A stretch of DNA of 33,533 nt from Spirochaetaceae bacterium. Lineage in GTDB: Bacteria; Spirochaetota; Spirochaetia; Treponematales; Breznakiellaceae. The stretch covers positions 1 to 33,533 of the forward strand of contig JAIRMP010000121.1 in the NCBI GenBank assembly GCA_031258615.1. Reading direction: 5' to 3'. The notes under the pieces are model-generated. The model worked only from the letters and a program-made list of their open reading frames with translations. It was not told where the DNA came from and searched no databases. Position numbers and translations under genes: made by a program. Of this stretch, positions 14,104 to 24,340 are shown piece by piece. Position 1 is the stretch's first letter; each line of letters begins with the position of its first letter.

Positions 14104-15693
14104 ATGAAGTTGTTAGAGATGATAGTTACCGGTGAATGTGTCAACGACAATCCTTACAGGTTCCACGCCCGCAACCCGAACGGTACCGCCGAGCATACGG
14201 TTCATATAGTGATGCCGCTGGGCGGCGCCGAATCGGGGTTGTACCGGTCCCCGAGGAAGGGTGAGTCTGTGCTTGTGGCTGAGAACGACGGCGGCGACAG
14301 CAATATGTATTACCTCATGGGATATTTGCCGGACAGCGAGCAGCCCTTTACCACCGGTGATAAAAACAAGGTCATTGATGACAGCGGCGAGATATTCCGG
14401 TATAAAAAAACCGGCAAAAACGGCCCGGACGGTGAAAAGTATTCGGAAATCGGGTTTTACAGCAAACCTACCTCATGGAGAATGACGGAAGGAGGGGATG
14501 ATACTCCCAAAATCGACAGGATCAGCATACATTCCACCGGTGATCTTCATGAAGACTCCATAAACCACCATAAAACAAGCGCTAAACGCTTTGAGCTCCT
14601 GGTGAATTGCGGGGACGGCGATGGCGAGGGTGAAGTTGCGGGCTCCGGCGGGCAGGAAAACAAACGCCCTTTTGGGGACGGCAAGGGTGACGATTCGGAA
14701 CTTTACGCCGGGGATGCCCATATCAGGGCCAGGAACCGGCTAATACTCAAGGCGGGAGAAGAGATACGCCTGCAAGTAGGCCGTTCCGCTATCATCATCA
14801 GCGATGACGGTATCACTATTACCTCGAAAAAGTCGCAAAAAAATAACGCGGCCATTCCCTGGGATACGGTGATAAACCTGACCCCCCGCGACGGCATAAC
14901 GATGTTCGGCCAGAACGTGAATGTGGGGGCGGCTTACAACTTTTCACTACGGGAGAGCGCCGGGGGCGCCGTTTCCAGCCTGGGCGGGGTGATGCGCCTT
15001 TCCGCCCGCGACCTTCTGGCGCAGTCCTACTGCAAGGCGGGCTACCAGTCCAACATGACGGAATTTATCAGGCAATACACCGCCACGGCAAAGGGTATGC
15101 GATCCGAGGAGGGGGATGTCCCCTCTTACACCGCCCTCCTGCCGTCCCTGGTGCAGTGCTTCTCCGGCATCAACTGGGGGTACGCATCCTCCACCTCCAA
15201 CTATTCCGATCCGGCGGGGGACTACGCCGCCTACTGCGGCATCCTGCTACAGATCCTCAGCCTCACCTATACCGGACTGGACTTGAGCATGAGCGCCGAG
15301 ATGAAGCGGAGCGGCGGGCGGGATGCCTTTAACGCGGCGGTCCTGGCGGATATGCAGGAGAAGGTGCAGGAGATGCTGGGTTATATTGACGATGCCGGGG
15401 ACCCGGCGCGGGCTGTTCACAACAGCTTCATGCACCTGACATCGTCAGCGGATGCTGTTTTGAGCGGCTACGACAATGAGCGGCTTTCGGTAAACGTTAT
15501 CGACGGCAACGCGCCGCTGGCGGGAACCAGCGGTTCCCTTATCGCCAAGGAGACCGCCCGCCTGCAAAAGGGAAATTCCGCCGAGTCGACCATGAGAACC
15601 TTTCTTCAAAACGAAAAGGACCTGATTGACAAGGGCGCCCTATGGGCGCTGGGAATGGACGACAGCGCTCTAAATAAACTCAAGGAGTTATAA
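14104..15693 (+). CDS. vgrG: Cassette 1 gene 1: gp5-like spike (VgrG C-terminal half: OB-fold plus beta-helix) with a unique C-terminal extension
   Basis: GAGGAG RBS lies 5 nt upstream. OB-fold-like region: VHIVMPLGGAESGLYRSPRKGESVLVAE...YYLMGYLP. Beta-helix-like rungs: IDRISIHSTGDLHE, LYAGDAHIRARNRLILKAGEEIRLQVGRSAIIISDDGITITSKK and GITMFGQNVNV. The last ~225 aa are unique. Confidence 0.7.
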   Translation: MKLLEMIVTGECVNDNPYRFHARNPNGTAEHTVHIVMPLGGAESGLYRSPRKGESVLVAENDGGDSNMYYLMGYLPDSEQPFTTGDKNKVIDDSGEIFRYKKTGKNGPDGEKYSEIGFYSKPTSWRMTEGGDDTPKIDRISIHSTGDLHEDSINHHKTSAKRFELLVNCGDGDGEGEVAGSGGQENKRPFGDGKGDDSELYAGDAHIRARNRLILKAGEEIRLQVGRSAIIISDDGITITSKKSQKNNAAIPWDTVINLTPRDGITMFGQNVNVGAAYNFSLRESAGGAVSSLGGVMRLSARDLLAQSYCKAGYQSNMTEFIRQYTATAKGMRSEEGDVPSYTALLPSLVQCFSGINWGYASSTSNYSDPAGDYAAYCGILLQILSLTYTGLDLSMSAEMKRSGGRDAFNAAVLADMQEKVQEMLGYIDDAGDPARAVHNSFMHLTSSADAVLSGYDNERLSVNVIDGNAPLAGTSGSLIAKETARLQKGNSAESTMRTFLQNEKDLIDKGALWALGMDDSALNKLKEL

Positions 15694-15694
15694 A

Positions 15695-16087
15695 ATGCCG
15701 GGATCAATAGATATAGCAGCCGTCGTTAACAGTTATAGCGGAGATAAAACTATAACCACATGGGATGGTTTTGTTGAGGCGATTATTGTTACCGCGATAG
15801 ACAAATGTTCACTTCAAAGCCGTGTAAGCGCGGGAGCAGAGGAAGAAGAAGACTGGGCTAACACAACAGAGCGTGTGAATTTTTCATTGGGATTTACAGG
15901 CGAGGAAGTAGCTCTTCTCGGTGTGGGTTTCTCCCTGTCAGGCGCTGAGACGGGACTTCATGTCATGGCGGGTGATTGGGCGCTTCTCAAACAAATTTCA
16001 CAAATGGCTGGATGGGAAGATAAGGCTTTGGAGAAAAAAAACGTTGCAGCCGGGATGGCCGTGTTTGGCATTGACCTTATAGCATAG
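15695..16087 (+). CDS. Cassette 1 gene 2: 130-aa hypothetical protein with Gly-rich hydrophobic segments
   Basis: AAGGAG lies 7 nt upstream, inside the end of the spike gene, with a 1-nt gap to the spike stop. The ORF is 130 aa, the same length as the other two cassette gene-2 products, but I see no obvious sequence similarity to them. Confidence 0.55.
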   Translation: MPGSIDIAAVVNSYSGDKTITTWDGFVEAIIVTAIDKCSLQSRVSAGAEEEEDWANTTERVNFSLGFTGEEVALLGVGFSLSGAETGLHVMAGDWALLKQISQMAGWEDKALEKKNVAAGMAVFGIDLIA

Positions 16088-16108
16088 GGTGATTTGTGGA
16101 ATAGTATT

Positions 16109-22767: not shown

Positions 22768-23160
22768 ATGGCATTAGGCAAAGAGACGAGTGATACCATA
22801 AAAGAACTGGTCGCGCCTATTGTCGGGTCGGCGCTGAGCGCCGCTGTGGTGGGCGCCGCTACCGCGATTATAGCGAAACTGGTGGTTACCAATTACAAGG
22901 AACACGGCATAACCGGGGACAAAGAGATAAAGCCCACCGAAGACGAGACCGCGATAAGCAAGTCCGAAGTCGCGGGTTCCGAGGCGGAGGGTAAACTTGC
23001 TCAGGACAAGGTGGCGGGAACCGAGGGCGAGGTGAAGGCCAACGAGACCGAGGCCCGCGCGGTAACCGGAGAGGCTACGGCATCGGATTCGGGGGCTTCC
23101 GCCCTGCGGACCAAGGCGGGGGCTTCGGATATCGAAACAAAGGCGCTGAAAATGACCTGA
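22768..23160 (+). CDS. Cassette 3 gene 2: 130-aa protein with an N-terminal hydrophobic helix and heptad repeats
   Basis: The ATG immediately follows the spike stop. It has the same length and repeat register as 19404-19796. The shared C-terminal sequence is GKLAQDKVAG..GEVKA.ETEARAVTGEATA.DSGA.ALRTKAGASDIE.KALKMT. Confidence 0.65.
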   Translation: MALGKETSDTIKELVAPIVGSALSAAVVGAATAIIAKLVVTNYKEHGITGDKEIKPTEDETAISKSEVAGSEAEGKLAQDKVAGTEGEVKANETEARAVTGEATASDSGASALRTKAGASDIETKALKMT

Positions 23161-23179
23161 CGTTTAAGGAGCATGGATA

Positions 23180-24340
23180 ATGGCGGATAAACTTGATTGG
23201 TTGAATAAACATCTGGCAATGTTGCGGTATATCACGCTCATGGATGTTGTTGAAAAGGAAGGGTATAAGATCAGACCGGACCTTGCGGACTTTTTCGTGG
23301 GGGTCAACACTGTGGAGGAGATGGTTTTTAAGTTTGCGGGTATGGGCCGTTTTAAGTGCGCCTGTGAACTCATGGCCTACATCGCCCACCGGCGGGCGGC
23401 TGTGTGGTGGCTCTACCGCTGTATTCATTCCTTACTCGAAGAGTTAGCGGAGAATCCCGCGGTTGAACGGGACATTGCCGACATCGGCATCAGTTTTGAA
23501 CCAACCGTGCCGGATTTTGCCAAGGTGGAAACGCCCAAAGCGGACCCTGAAATGATCGCGTCTATGAAGGCAAAACTCGCGGATATGGAAGCGGATTATC
23601 AAAAGGCCAGGGCAGTGGCGGATCCCCAGATGCTCGGCCTTGTGGAGGAAGCGATGGAAGTCGCCTACCAGGAGTTTAAGAAGGTCCACGGCATTCACCC
23701 TCTGGACCTGATTAAAAAATTGGGAGAAAGGATGGAGGAGGATCCCCATCCCATCGATCCTGATTCCCCCCTTTTCAAGGCCGCGGACGAACTCAAGGCT
23801 AAGCTCCAAACGGTGCGGAAGGAAACGGTGGACACGATTAAGTCGGTGATCCCGCCCAAGGTGCCGGCGCACGAAAAAAAGGTACGGGATGACGCGCTTT
23901 CCGCCGTGTACCGCTGGGTTGCCGCCCCGGACGAGGAGAACAGCAAGGCCTGCCTTGACATAGGCAACGAATGTCCGGACACACCGGCGGGACTGCTTTC
24001 GCTCTCCGCTTTCTGGGCGTTCGGCAACCTGATGCCGGGCGGCAAGCAGGTAATCCCGGCTCCGCCCGGCCTTGCCGCCAACGGGCTGGTACAGACGCTC
24101 CTGATGTGCGCCCTCCACAAGGGCGGGACGCGGAAGGTAAAGGAACGCTACGAGGTCTACTTCAACCTAGGGGTGGAGGTGATGAGCGGCACGGACAACT
24201 GGGAAGAAGGCATTGTTACAGGCAGAGCGCCCCACGAAAATTTGAGCGCTCCGGCAAACGTCCCTCCGGCTGGTGGCGGCGCCCCGCGAGGCGATGGAAC
24301 GGCGTACAAACGCTGGAAGCCGGAAAGCCCGGGACCGTAA
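23180..24340 (+). CDS. Cassette 3 gene 3: 'MADKLDWL' family protein
   Basis: AAGGAG lies 8 nt upstream. The product is 386 aa and is a paralog of 16109-17290 and 19807-20946. Confidence 0.7.
   Translation: MADKLDWLNKHLAMLRYITLMDVVEKEGYKIRPDLADFFVGVNTVEEMVFKFAGMGRFKCACELMAYIAHRRAAVWWLYRCIHSLLEELAENPAVERDIADIGISFEPTVPDFAKVETPKADPEMIASMKAKLADMEADYQKARAVADPQMLGLVEEAMEVAYQEFKKVHGIHPLDLIKKLGERMEEDPHPIDPDSPLFKAADELKAKLQTVRKETVDTIKSVIPPKVPAHEKKVRDDALSAVYRWVAAPDEENSKACLDIGNECPDTPAGLLSLSAFWAFGNLMPGGKQVIPAPPGLAANGLVQTLLMCALHKGGTRKVKERYEVYFNLGVEVMSGTDNWEEGIVTGRAPHENLSAPANVPPAGGGAPRGDGTAYKRWKPESPGP

Follow-up and report, generated by a model that had tools for sequence, protein, structure and literature searches.

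A threefold cassette of split-VgrG needle, small partner and DUF6931 protein inside a spirochaetal type VI secretion locus

The stretch of DNA analyzed here, referred to below as the window, comprises 33,533 nucleotides (nt) of a Spirochaetaceae bacterium (contig JAIRMP010000121.1, positions 1 to 33,533) and contains a complete type VI secretion system (T6SS) locus of the T6SS(i) type, with all of its genes on the + strand. Between positions 14104 and 24340, inside the core operon, three consecutive cassettes (a, b and c) each consist of a spike-like gene (gene 1), a small gene (gene 2) and a longer gene (gene 3). Why should one secretion locus carry such a set of genes three times, and what might their products do? 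An earlier note, made from the sequence without database searches, had taken the cassettes for a spike-linked and possibly undescribed cargo, chaperone or immunity module that had been amplified and diversified. In our analysis, gene 1 emerges as the needle half of a split VgrG and gene 3 as a long form of the Pfam family DUF6931, and we consider it somewhat probable that the region provides three alternative tips for one spike, each with a cognate cytoplasmic chaperone or assembly partner based on DUF6931.

All nine cassette open reading frames (ORFs) were verified at their coordinates on the + strand. The gaps between genes 1 and 2 are 1, 9 and 0 nt, and those between genes 2 and 3 are 21, 10 and 19 nt, in cassettes a, b and c, respectively, with gene 3a counted from its ATG at 16109; the three triplets with common gene order, strand and spacing had been described exactly. 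The cassettes are separated by 94 and 120 nt, in which no terminator-like signal stood out, and promoter and terminator scans gave nothing above background. Because the DNA identity between cassettes is only 70-81%, and this in conserved blocks only, the triplication is old and real; a recent duplication or an assembly artefact was ruled out on the same ground. Amplification and diversification of a spike-linked module are supported by this cassette paralogy. According to the ORF list and Pfam, the genes of the locus follow one another as TssA, TssB, TssC, Hcp, TssE, TssF, TssG, ClpV, PAAR, a gp27-only protein, the nine cassette ORFs, a TssJ-like lipoprotein, TssK, TssL and TssM. The proposed flanks, with PAAR and gp27-like genes upstream and tssJKLM downstream, were both recovered, the former by Pfam (PAAR and Phage_GPD) and TssJ by lipobox and position. 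The PAAR tip protein (12564-12857, + strand, 97 amino acids (aa); PAAR_motif E 3.5e-5) is the sole PAAR of the window, and related loci have a ~95-aa gene at the equivalent position.

The three gene 1 products (1a, 14104-15693, 529 aa; 1b, 17385-19394, 669 aa; 1c, 21067-22767, 566 aa; all on the + strand) are 32-51% identical across their first ~300-385 residues (BLASTP E 1e-55 to 1e-95), with 1c and 1a sharing 51% identity over the N-terminal 324 aa, which bears out the N-terminal block that had been proposed for them. An OB-fold domain (14104-14457 in 1a) is followed by beta-helix rungs (14686-15003 in 1a, 18231-18521 in 1b and 21712-22002 in 1c), and both features of a gp5-gpV central spike are thereby present in gene 1. 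Pfam matches to Phage_base_V (OB) were weak in all three paralogs (E 0.002-0.014, below the cut-off), and those to DUF2345 and to the Francisella-type VgrG family T6SS_TssI_Fran were likewise weak and sub-threshold (Pfam and NCBIfam); one gene 1 homolog bears a precomputed PF04717 match. An AlphaFold2 (AF2) model of gene 1a, with an overall predicted local distance difference test score (pLDDT) of 58.8, reaches 70-87 in the N-terminal beta domain and places beta strands at residues 220-300. Searched with Foldseek, this model matched T6SS VgrGs (9mlp, 6e-8; 4uhv, 2e-7; 7q5p, 5e-7; probability 1.00), as well as the PVC and AFP spikes, the R2 pyocin spike, P2 gpV and phi92 gp138 (probability 1.00). 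Gene 1 shares its GITMFG motif with the C-terminus of canonical VgrGs, and beta-helix matches to the gene 1 profile were obtained in a Burkholderiales VgrG (E 7e-4) as well as in the VgrGs of three related loci, L026, L112 and L113, in which gp27 and gp5 parts are fused. Some 30 clusters of full-length homologs, 44-77% identical, were found for 1a.

What gene 1 lacks is a gp27-like domain, so that it is not a single-fusion VgrG. Instead, Phage_GPD was detected by Pfam on the separate 409-aa protein encoded immediately upstream of the cassettes (12850-14079, + strand, with an alternative ATG start at 12859; Phage_GPD E 2e-15 and TIGR03361 E 1e-13, both confined to the N-terminal part). The more distant relative L026 (gene 3 identity 38%), whose locus has the same architecture, encodes one fused VgrG of 1018 aa, to which the gp27-only protein of the window aligns at residues 19-374 (E 1e-21) and the gene 1 profile at residues 429-1017 (E 1e-19). 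Since the two map consecutively on the fused protein, gene 1 is best read as the needle half of the spike and not as cargo encoded beside a VgrG. By sequence and by modelled structure, gene 1 is the gp5/gpV-like half of a split VgrG whose gp27 half lies at 12850-14079; the cassettes had been placed in the slot that accompanies a VgrG, and gene 1 itself turns out to be part of it.

Beyond the beta-helix, the spikes continue for 236-289 aa. The resulting C-terminal domains occupy 15004-15690 in 1a (conserved module at 15202-15534, ending in KLKEL), 18522-19391 in 1b (three hydrophobic 19-mers, terminal module at 18903-19313, ending in EKL) and 22003-22764 in 1c (two hydrophobic segments, ending in RSL). 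The window extensions are mutually unrelated by BLASTP, and 20 cassettes fall into at least 8 BLAST-level extension types. At the profile level, the whole 1c-type extension aligned with the 1a family (hhalign probability 100%, E 4.6e-41, 254 columns) and the 1b-type terminal module with the 1a-family extension (96.3%, E 1.6e-9); the complete C-terminal divergence of the earlier note therefore does not hold, and on profile evidence the three extensions are remote homologs within one rapidly diverging domain family. A strict division of the extensions into classes A and B was weakened as well, given that the 1c type is closest to the 1a family yet paired with a 2b/2c-type partner. The terminal module, of about 110-150 aa, has an ORF of its own in six loci, where it stands between genes 1 and 2, and is fused to the C-terminus of many other spikes; its hidden Markov model hits residues 507-643 of 1b (E 2e-20), and the extension domain could further be aligned to the fused VgrGs of L026 and L113. 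The gene 1a model, used here for secondary structure only at its pLDDT of 58.8, predicts a mostly helical extension with a short beta hairpin, and by hydropathy most class B extensions contain at least one 19-mer of strong hydrophobicity. In 19 of 25 cassettes, the protein encoded just ahead of gene 2 has a C-terminal x-x-Leu, for the most part Glu-x-Leu, and the KLKEL ending is common to all 1a-type spikes. Searches of gene 1c and of the 1a-family profile against PDB sequences gave chance matches only, and a database search with the 1b extension found a single relative, a fragment with 61% identity. One further locus carries a 366-aa low-complexity ORF with GTSTPA-type repeats (L017:8475-9575) between a spike and gene 2, and that spike is devoid of the usual C-terminal ending.

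The small partners turned out to be of two kinds. All three are indeed 130 aa long (2a, 15695-16087; 2b, 19404-19796; 2c, 22768-23160; + strand), but homology is restricted to 2b and 2c (64% identity, BLASTP); 2a compared with 2b/2c gave a BLASTP E of 0.7, no real alignment to a 22-sequence profile and an hhalign probability of 0.14%. Judged by these comparisons, 2a is unrelated to 2b/2c and belongs to a separate, fast-evolving family behind 1a-type spikes. The 2b/2c-type protein is encoded directly upstream of DUF6931 in 24 of 25 cassettes, regardless of the spike extension. It begins with a hydrophobic, Ala/Gly-rich helix (19428-19529 in 2b) of about 30 residues, flanked by acidic rather than basic residues according to hydropathy, and continues through an acidic linker into a highly conserved heptad-repeat C-terminus of 56 residues (19626-19793 in 2b, ending in ALKMT; 22990-23157 in 2c). 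Hydrophobic residues take up 74% of the heptad a/d positions versus 27% of positions elsewhere (permutation p about 0.001). We also considered 8-residue beta-helix rungs for this conserved half and rejected them, as Fourier and register analysis revealed a strong period of 7 and a weak period of 8. Although no Pfam, NCBIfam or PHROG model matches it, the 2b/2c family reaches L026 (E 6e-7) and the Anaerobiospirillum-type loci (E 2.5e-33 and 1.7e-14), where its members adjoin a long DUF6931 and a long VgrG and carry almost the same C-terminal motif, RTKAGASDIETKAMKMN. The helix of the L112 homolog is merely amphipathic (Kyte-Doolittle (KD) hydropathy 1.0). Between phyla, the 2b/2c C-terminus has remained almost unchanged, whereas the spike extension has diverged past BLAST recognition.

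Gene 2a, the class A small partner, is Gly-rich with a beta-like C-terminal half and shows no hydrophobic helix by hydropathy and no Pfam, NCBIfam or PHROG match. A homolog, also of 130 aa, stands behind the 1a-type spike in L110 (30% identity, E 7e-11), and loose, transitive links lead to proteins of 105-498 aa behind 1a-type spikes in L107-L111. The largest of these, a 498-aa protein in the gene 2 slot behind a 1a-type spike (L108:4815-6311), consists of many tandem repeats of about 17 aa (DGDEGLVAKGKTVQEAL), with a C-terminal part of about 130 aa similar to the 2a family. In one other cassette, two small ORFs of 86 and 113 aa lie between the gene 2 homolog and the DUF6931 gene (L018:5645-6240); they look like a toxin-antitoxin pair by eye, the second resembling PemK/MazF.

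Gene 3 could be assigned to a Pfam family. Its three copies (3a, 16109-17290, with the ORF opening at a TTG at 16094; 3b, 19807-20946, 379 aa; 3c, 23180-24340, 386 aa; all on the + strand) score 66.2, 79.6 and 85.7 bits for DUF6931 (PF22011; E 4e-18, 3e-22 and 4e-24) against a Pfam cut-off of 27. They are homologous end to end, as had been claimed, with 51% identity between 3a and 3b/3c and 70% between 3b and 3c (BLASTP E 1e-136 to 0), and the DUF6931 partner of the 1a-type spike in L108 is 66% identical to 3a and ~50% identical to 3b and 3c. Short forms of the family align to gene 3 residues ~18-95 and ~232-345, with both DUF6931 halves present, from which follows a helical insertion of about 135 aa in gene 3. 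In 3c, the N-terminal half lies at ~23231-23464, the insertion at 23465-23872 and the C-terminal half at 23873-24214, followed by a conserved YKRWKP tail. The AF2 model of 3c (pLDDT 89.8, predicted template modelling score 0.74) is all-alpha, the insertion forming four long helices; it has no structural neighbor in the PDB (best E 1.3) or BFVD, and searches of PDB sequences returned chance matches only. No hydrophobic segment, signal peptide or transmembrane (TM)-like segment was detected in gene 3 by hydropathy, no dedicated predictor having been applied. The long-form gene adjoins a VgrG or PAAR gene in all 25 long-form cassettes. Gene 3 thus belongs to a family that is catalogued in Pfam but functionally uncharacterized; that the module matches no characterized adaptor, immunity or effector family does stand. 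None of the nine proteins matches DUF4123, DUF1795, DUF2169, Rhs, lipase, amidase or nuclease families in Pfam (adaptors at E <= 0.1), as the earlier note had anticipated. The sole literature mention that we found concerns the Pseudovibrio T6SS-1, where 'DUF6931/SsdA-like immunity' is a putative label given without a test (bioRxiv 10.64898/2026.06.19.733351).

Is DUF6931 a T6SS family at all? An exhaustive search yielded 371 clusters at 50% identity, about 50 of them long forms and most of them short forms of ~190 aa (typically ~190-205 aa). For the retrieval of short-form loci, a 51-sequence alignment was too diverse, and a 13-sequence subset worked. Among the 80 metagenome loci obtained, a VgrG gene lies immediately upstream of the short form in 42 of 62 assessable cases and a PAAR gene immediately downstream in 43 of 69, and all 27 short-form loci longer than 6 kb contain T6SS genes; the possibility that the gene 3 family occurs mostly outside T6SS was therefore checked and the opposite found, a strong linkage to T6SS. 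The short-form loci belong to soil and marine T6SS, and one Burkholderiales metagenome-assembled genome (MAG) has ClpV, VgrG, DUF6931, PAAR and TssA consecutively. In 27 of the 28 short-form VgrGs examined, the protein ends at the beta-helix with a conserved KGGITMI[GN] and has no extension. Most of the accompanying PAARs are plain proteins devoid of a toxin domain: their median length is 96 aa, 29 of 33 complete ORFs do not exceed 114 aa, and the median gap to the DUF6931 gene is 9 nt. From the sequence comparisons, DUF6931 is a widespread spike-linked companion family of T6SS, and the company that the short form keeps with extension-less VgrGs shows the family to have a function that does not depend on an extension. 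Two loci encode a 321-aa fusion of Yop-YscD_cpl/FHA with DUF6931 (L024:10001-10966 and L025:6769-7734), whose neighbors are an orphan VgrG (734 aa), a PAAR in divergent orientation and chemotaxis genes; the architecture hints at phospho-threonine-dependent control of the spike accessory.

The cassette number varies among related loci. Treponema sp. TIM-1 has one cassette in the slot and L002 has two; L109 has three, and L111 has two placed around the hub gene. An orphan cassette in L110 (L110:7665-11242), composed of a 107-aa PAAR, a 1a-type spike, a 130-aa 2a-like protein and DUF6931, sits beside a ribosomal protein/EF-Tu operon, far from T6SS core genes. Elsewhere, a 1a-type cassette stands ahead of the gp27 hub, and a second PAAR follows its DUF6931 (L109:9687-21665 and L111:758-9507); because of this arrangement, the gene order around the hub appears fluid and PAAR duplicable together with cassettes. 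In the light of these loci, the array is variable, and the triplication seen in the window is one of its states. For genes 1 and 3, the closest homologs were found exclusively in Treponema or Spirochaetaceae genomes and MAGs, whose isolate and locus-tag style suggests an origin in termite-gut metagenomes. A contig scan with a single protein returned close Treponema relatives only, and the taxonomic breadth described here stems from the other searches.

Long DUF6931, an extended spike and a 2b/2c-family gene co-occur in Treponema, in L026 and in Anaerobiospirillum-type loci, whereas short DUF6931 co-occurs with an extension-less VgrG and no small gene. This phyletic pattern across two phyla is our main argument that the three may form a functional triad. 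The loci of gut Succinivibrionaceae of the Anaerobiospirillum/Avisuccinivibrio type (L112:3651-11076 and L113:8493-14854) encode a long DUF6931, a 2b/2c-family protein and fused VgrGs of 1472 and 994 aa, and their gene 2 C-terminal motif is near-identical to that of Treponema despite a DUF6931 identity of ~35-38%; this implies that the contact is under strong constraint or else that the genes were exchanged among gut anaerobes. Treponema-like cassettes with a gene 3 identity of 62% were also observed in L015 (CALDOX010000002.1) and P0357, both labelled Alphaproteobacteria, which reflects either mis-binning or horizontal transfer.

How could such an array work? Under our preferred reading of three alternative tips, the gp27 trimer with PAAR could combine with any of the three needle trimers, so that three versions of the spike would exist. 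The needle's C-terminal domain would be the delivered payload, probably membrane-active, and DUF6931 would act as a cytoplasmic spike-tip chaperone or assembly factor, not as an immunity protein; it appears to be cytoplasmic from its FHA fusion, the lack of a hydrophobic segment and the confident all-alpha model. Its conserved core may carry out a job common to all hosts, on the distal VgrG end and/or in PAAR mounting, and the insertion, which only the long forms have, may take charge of the extension and the small partner up to the loading of the spike. Via its coiled coil, the 2b/2c protein would join the trimeric tip, as a co-passenger or tip accessory. We regard as possible, though short of probable, the wider proposal that DUF6931 is an unrecognized and structurally novel class of spike-tip chaperones or PAAR-mounting factors, in use throughout a large T6SS clade (the 371 clusters), whose insertion co-evolved with a trimeric coiled-coil protein and a membrane-active spike domain in gut anaerobes (Treponema and Succinivibrionaceae), making up a three-part swappable warhead in which the split VgrG lets one hub take several needles.

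Several points weigh against assigning these roles. Pfam, NCBIfam, PHROG and PDB sequence searches gave no match, and hence no known toxin domain, in any extension, and an antibacterial extension would need an immunity gene, none of which was identified unless it is gene 2. The gene 1a model is of low confidence and leaves the fold of the extension and its membrane activity as suppositions, and the full-length conservation of 1a-type spikes leaves room for a purely structural role. As the short forms function where there is no extension, the role given to the insertion is an extrapolation, and the fused VgrGs of L026 and L112 do not have the Glu-x-Leu ending. Finally, part of the support for our reading comes from Mantel correlations over 20 cassettes, in which the spike extension tracks most closely the N-terminal half of gene 2 (rho 0.40) along with the insertion-bearing middle of gene 3 (0.46), and the C-terminal half of gene 2 tracks the DUF6931 domain (rho 0.72); shared ancestry and unequal evolutionary rates confound these values, which are suggestive only.

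The main rival, which we consider unlikely, holds that the extensions are structural and not toxic: this clade would have built up its tip or a docking platform from them, with paralogous needles recruiting cargo effectors encoded elsewhere and genes 2 and 3 serving as assembly factors. It accounts well for the extensions being one conserved family with the same order of secondary structures, for the ~30 clusters of 1a-type spikes conserved over their full length, for the lack of a detected toxin domain and of an evident immunity gene, and for a 2b/2c C-terminus almost invariant across phyla, as would be expected of a structural contact. It fits less well with the way in which the extensions diverge to an extreme degree, vary in copy number, occur in orphan islands and have their terminal module now fused, now separate, all of which are hallmarks of T6SS effectors; moreover, strongly hydrophobic helices on a spike assembled in the cytoplasm are typical of membrane-targeting payloads, and no candidate cargo genes are present in or beside the cassettes. 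Immunity, one of the three roles that had been offered for the module beside cargo and chaperone, has lost most of its appeal for gene 3 and for 2b/2c, where the short DUF6931 context, the FHA fusion and the invariance of the 2b/2c C-terminus make it unlikely, and for gene 2 it is a minor possibility. The pairing and co-divergence of an immunity protein with its toxin were not seen: short DUF6931 occurs without toxin neighbors, the gene 3 copies are 51-70% identical and the 2b/2c C-terminus is near-invariant, while the extensions are unrelated by BLAST. One may still suppose, as a rather improbable alternative, that gene 2 (2b/2c, or 2a for spike 1a) protects against a membrane-active antibacterial extension, with DUF6931 remaining a chaperone. 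Gene 2 lies directly downstream of an effector-like domain, the usual immunity position; 2b and 2c have the ~30-residue hydrophobic helix, the extension type covaries with the N-terminal half of gene 2 (rho 0.40), and the differing spike 1a has the differing partner 2a. Yet a single 2b/2c family serves at least 8 BLAST-distinct extension types, its C-terminal 56-aa coiled coil is nearly unchanged between Spirochaetes and Gammaproteobacteria, the helix is flanked by acidic rather than basic residues and is only amphipathic in L112, and no orphan arrays of immunity-like gene 2 copies were seen.

Two further proposals concern DUF6931 itself. That it is mainly a regulator or checkpoint, for example tying spike or baseplate assembly to threonine-phosphorylation signalling, seems very improbable: the FHA-DUF6931 fusion beside an orphan VgrG and PAAR and the conservation of the gene in core loci without an effector speak for it, but this fusion is the single architecture seen, DUF4123, a bona fide adaptor family, likewise includes FHA fusions (PMC7714669), and one copy per spike paralog, even in orphan cassettes, fits a stoichiometric partner better. 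We give hardly any credence to an immunity function of gene 3, the guess made for Pseudovibrio. The preprint label and the position downstream of the spike genes are in its favor; against this, short-form VgrGs are extension-less (27/28) with mostly ~96-aa, toxin-less PAARs, an FHA fusion exists, signal peptides and TM-like segments are missing from the hydropathy profiles, the paralogs remain 51-70% identical while the extensions are unrecognizable to BLAST, and there is one copy per spike with no immunity-style arrays.

Compared with known systems, the array resembles the multi-vgrG 'a la carte' delivery with cognate accessory genes described for the P. aeruginosa VgrGs (PMC4067218) and VgrG2b (PMC6899460). 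As in such evolved and multi-VgrG systems, several spike paralogs share one apparatus, each has an extension and its own downstream accessory genes, and the extension alternates between spike-fused and separately encoded forms. The window differs in that gp27 is a single-copy separate gene and only the gp5-like half is multiplied; the extensions form one remote-homology family without a recognizable toxin domain; the accessories are DUF6931 and an unannotated coiled-coil protein instead of DUF4123, DUF1795 or DUF2169; and the core operon itself houses the array, with the hub gene on one side and tssJKLM on the other. Separate hub and needle polypeptides are otherwise found in T4 gp27 and gp5, P2 gpD and gpV and the R2 pyocin spike, and by Foldseek the model of gene 1a resembles gpV and the R2 spike; unlike these phage and pyocin pairs, the window holds a genuine T6SS(i) locus that includes TssA-M and ClpV, and its several needle paralogs have long C-terminal domains and accessory genes of their own. 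Split vgrG loci were noted in Acinetobacter, with no such arrays reported (PMC6838775). What sets the window apart is the combination of needle-only multiplication, a single extension family, DUF6931 and coiled-coil partners, and an array within the core operon.

With respect to the T6SS adaptors (DUF4123 (Tap/Tec), DUF1795 (Eag) and DUF2169, with PRK06147 as a candidate; PMC7714669), DUF6931 shares the adaptor-defining genomic signature of a tight upstream VgrG and a downstream PAAR, and it is apparently cytoplasmic, present in one copy per spike and occasionally fused to FHA, as is DUF4123. By analogy, the shielding of hydrophobic effector helices by Eag chaperones would correspond to the role suggested for the long-form insertion. 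DUF6931 differs from the adaptors in having no sequence match to them and no structural match to solved structures, and its short form accompanies extension-less VgrGs and toxin-less PAARs, for which reason DUF6931 is probably not primarily an effector loader. Relative to the canonical VgrG-DUF6931-PAAR triad, which the short forms make up in proteobacterial and environmental T6SS loci, the window has the same protein family, aligned over both domain halves and linked to spike and PAAR. Here, however, the family has the ~135-aa insertion and N- and C-terminal extensions, occurs in several copies, each coupled with a small partner gene and a spike that bears a C-terminal domain, and the PAAR lies upstream of the hub, not directly downstream of DUF6931.

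Some other features of the window deserve mention. The cassette array is closed by the TssJ-like lipoprotein (24346-24918, + strand; lipobox LVAC), followed by TssK, TssL and TssM. Its name is inferred from position and lipobox; it has no Pfam match, and counterparts of ~200-220 aa exist in L001, L002, L026 and L108. The ORF opening at 23971 over-extends this gene, whose likely start is 24346 or 24358. Alternative-frame ORFs within 3b and 3c (20598-21047 and 23971-24345) have similar translations (MSGHAGGATLPVRFLG...) and were rejected as genes, being a by-product of DNA conservation between paralogs. TssM (26984-31453) is long, with 1489 aa as listed, and Pfam recognizes its IcmF-related N-terminal domain only; the listed TTG start, which overlaps TssL by ~100 nt, is probably over-extended. 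Upstream of tssA, two ORFs of 128 aa (466-852) and 151 aa (2070-2525) have no Pfam match, the latter immediately preceding the T6SS operon, and an upstream rubrerythrin gene is compatible with an anaerobe.

T6SS spike loading is presently explained by a handful of adaptor families. DUF6931 is a candidate new accessory family, with an adaptor-like genomic signature and a different, unsolved fold, and the association of its short form with effector-less spikes suggests an unrecognized step in the assembly of the VgrG/PAAR tip. We found no paper in the literature on the T6SS loci of termite-gut treponemes, an under-studied group. The conserved C-terminal domain of their spikes, together with its coiled-coil partner, is a candidate for a new membrane-directed payload, and the split VgrG of Treponema, in which the needle half and its partners are multiplied, may illustrate a way for a contractile weapon to vary its tip while keeping a single hub.

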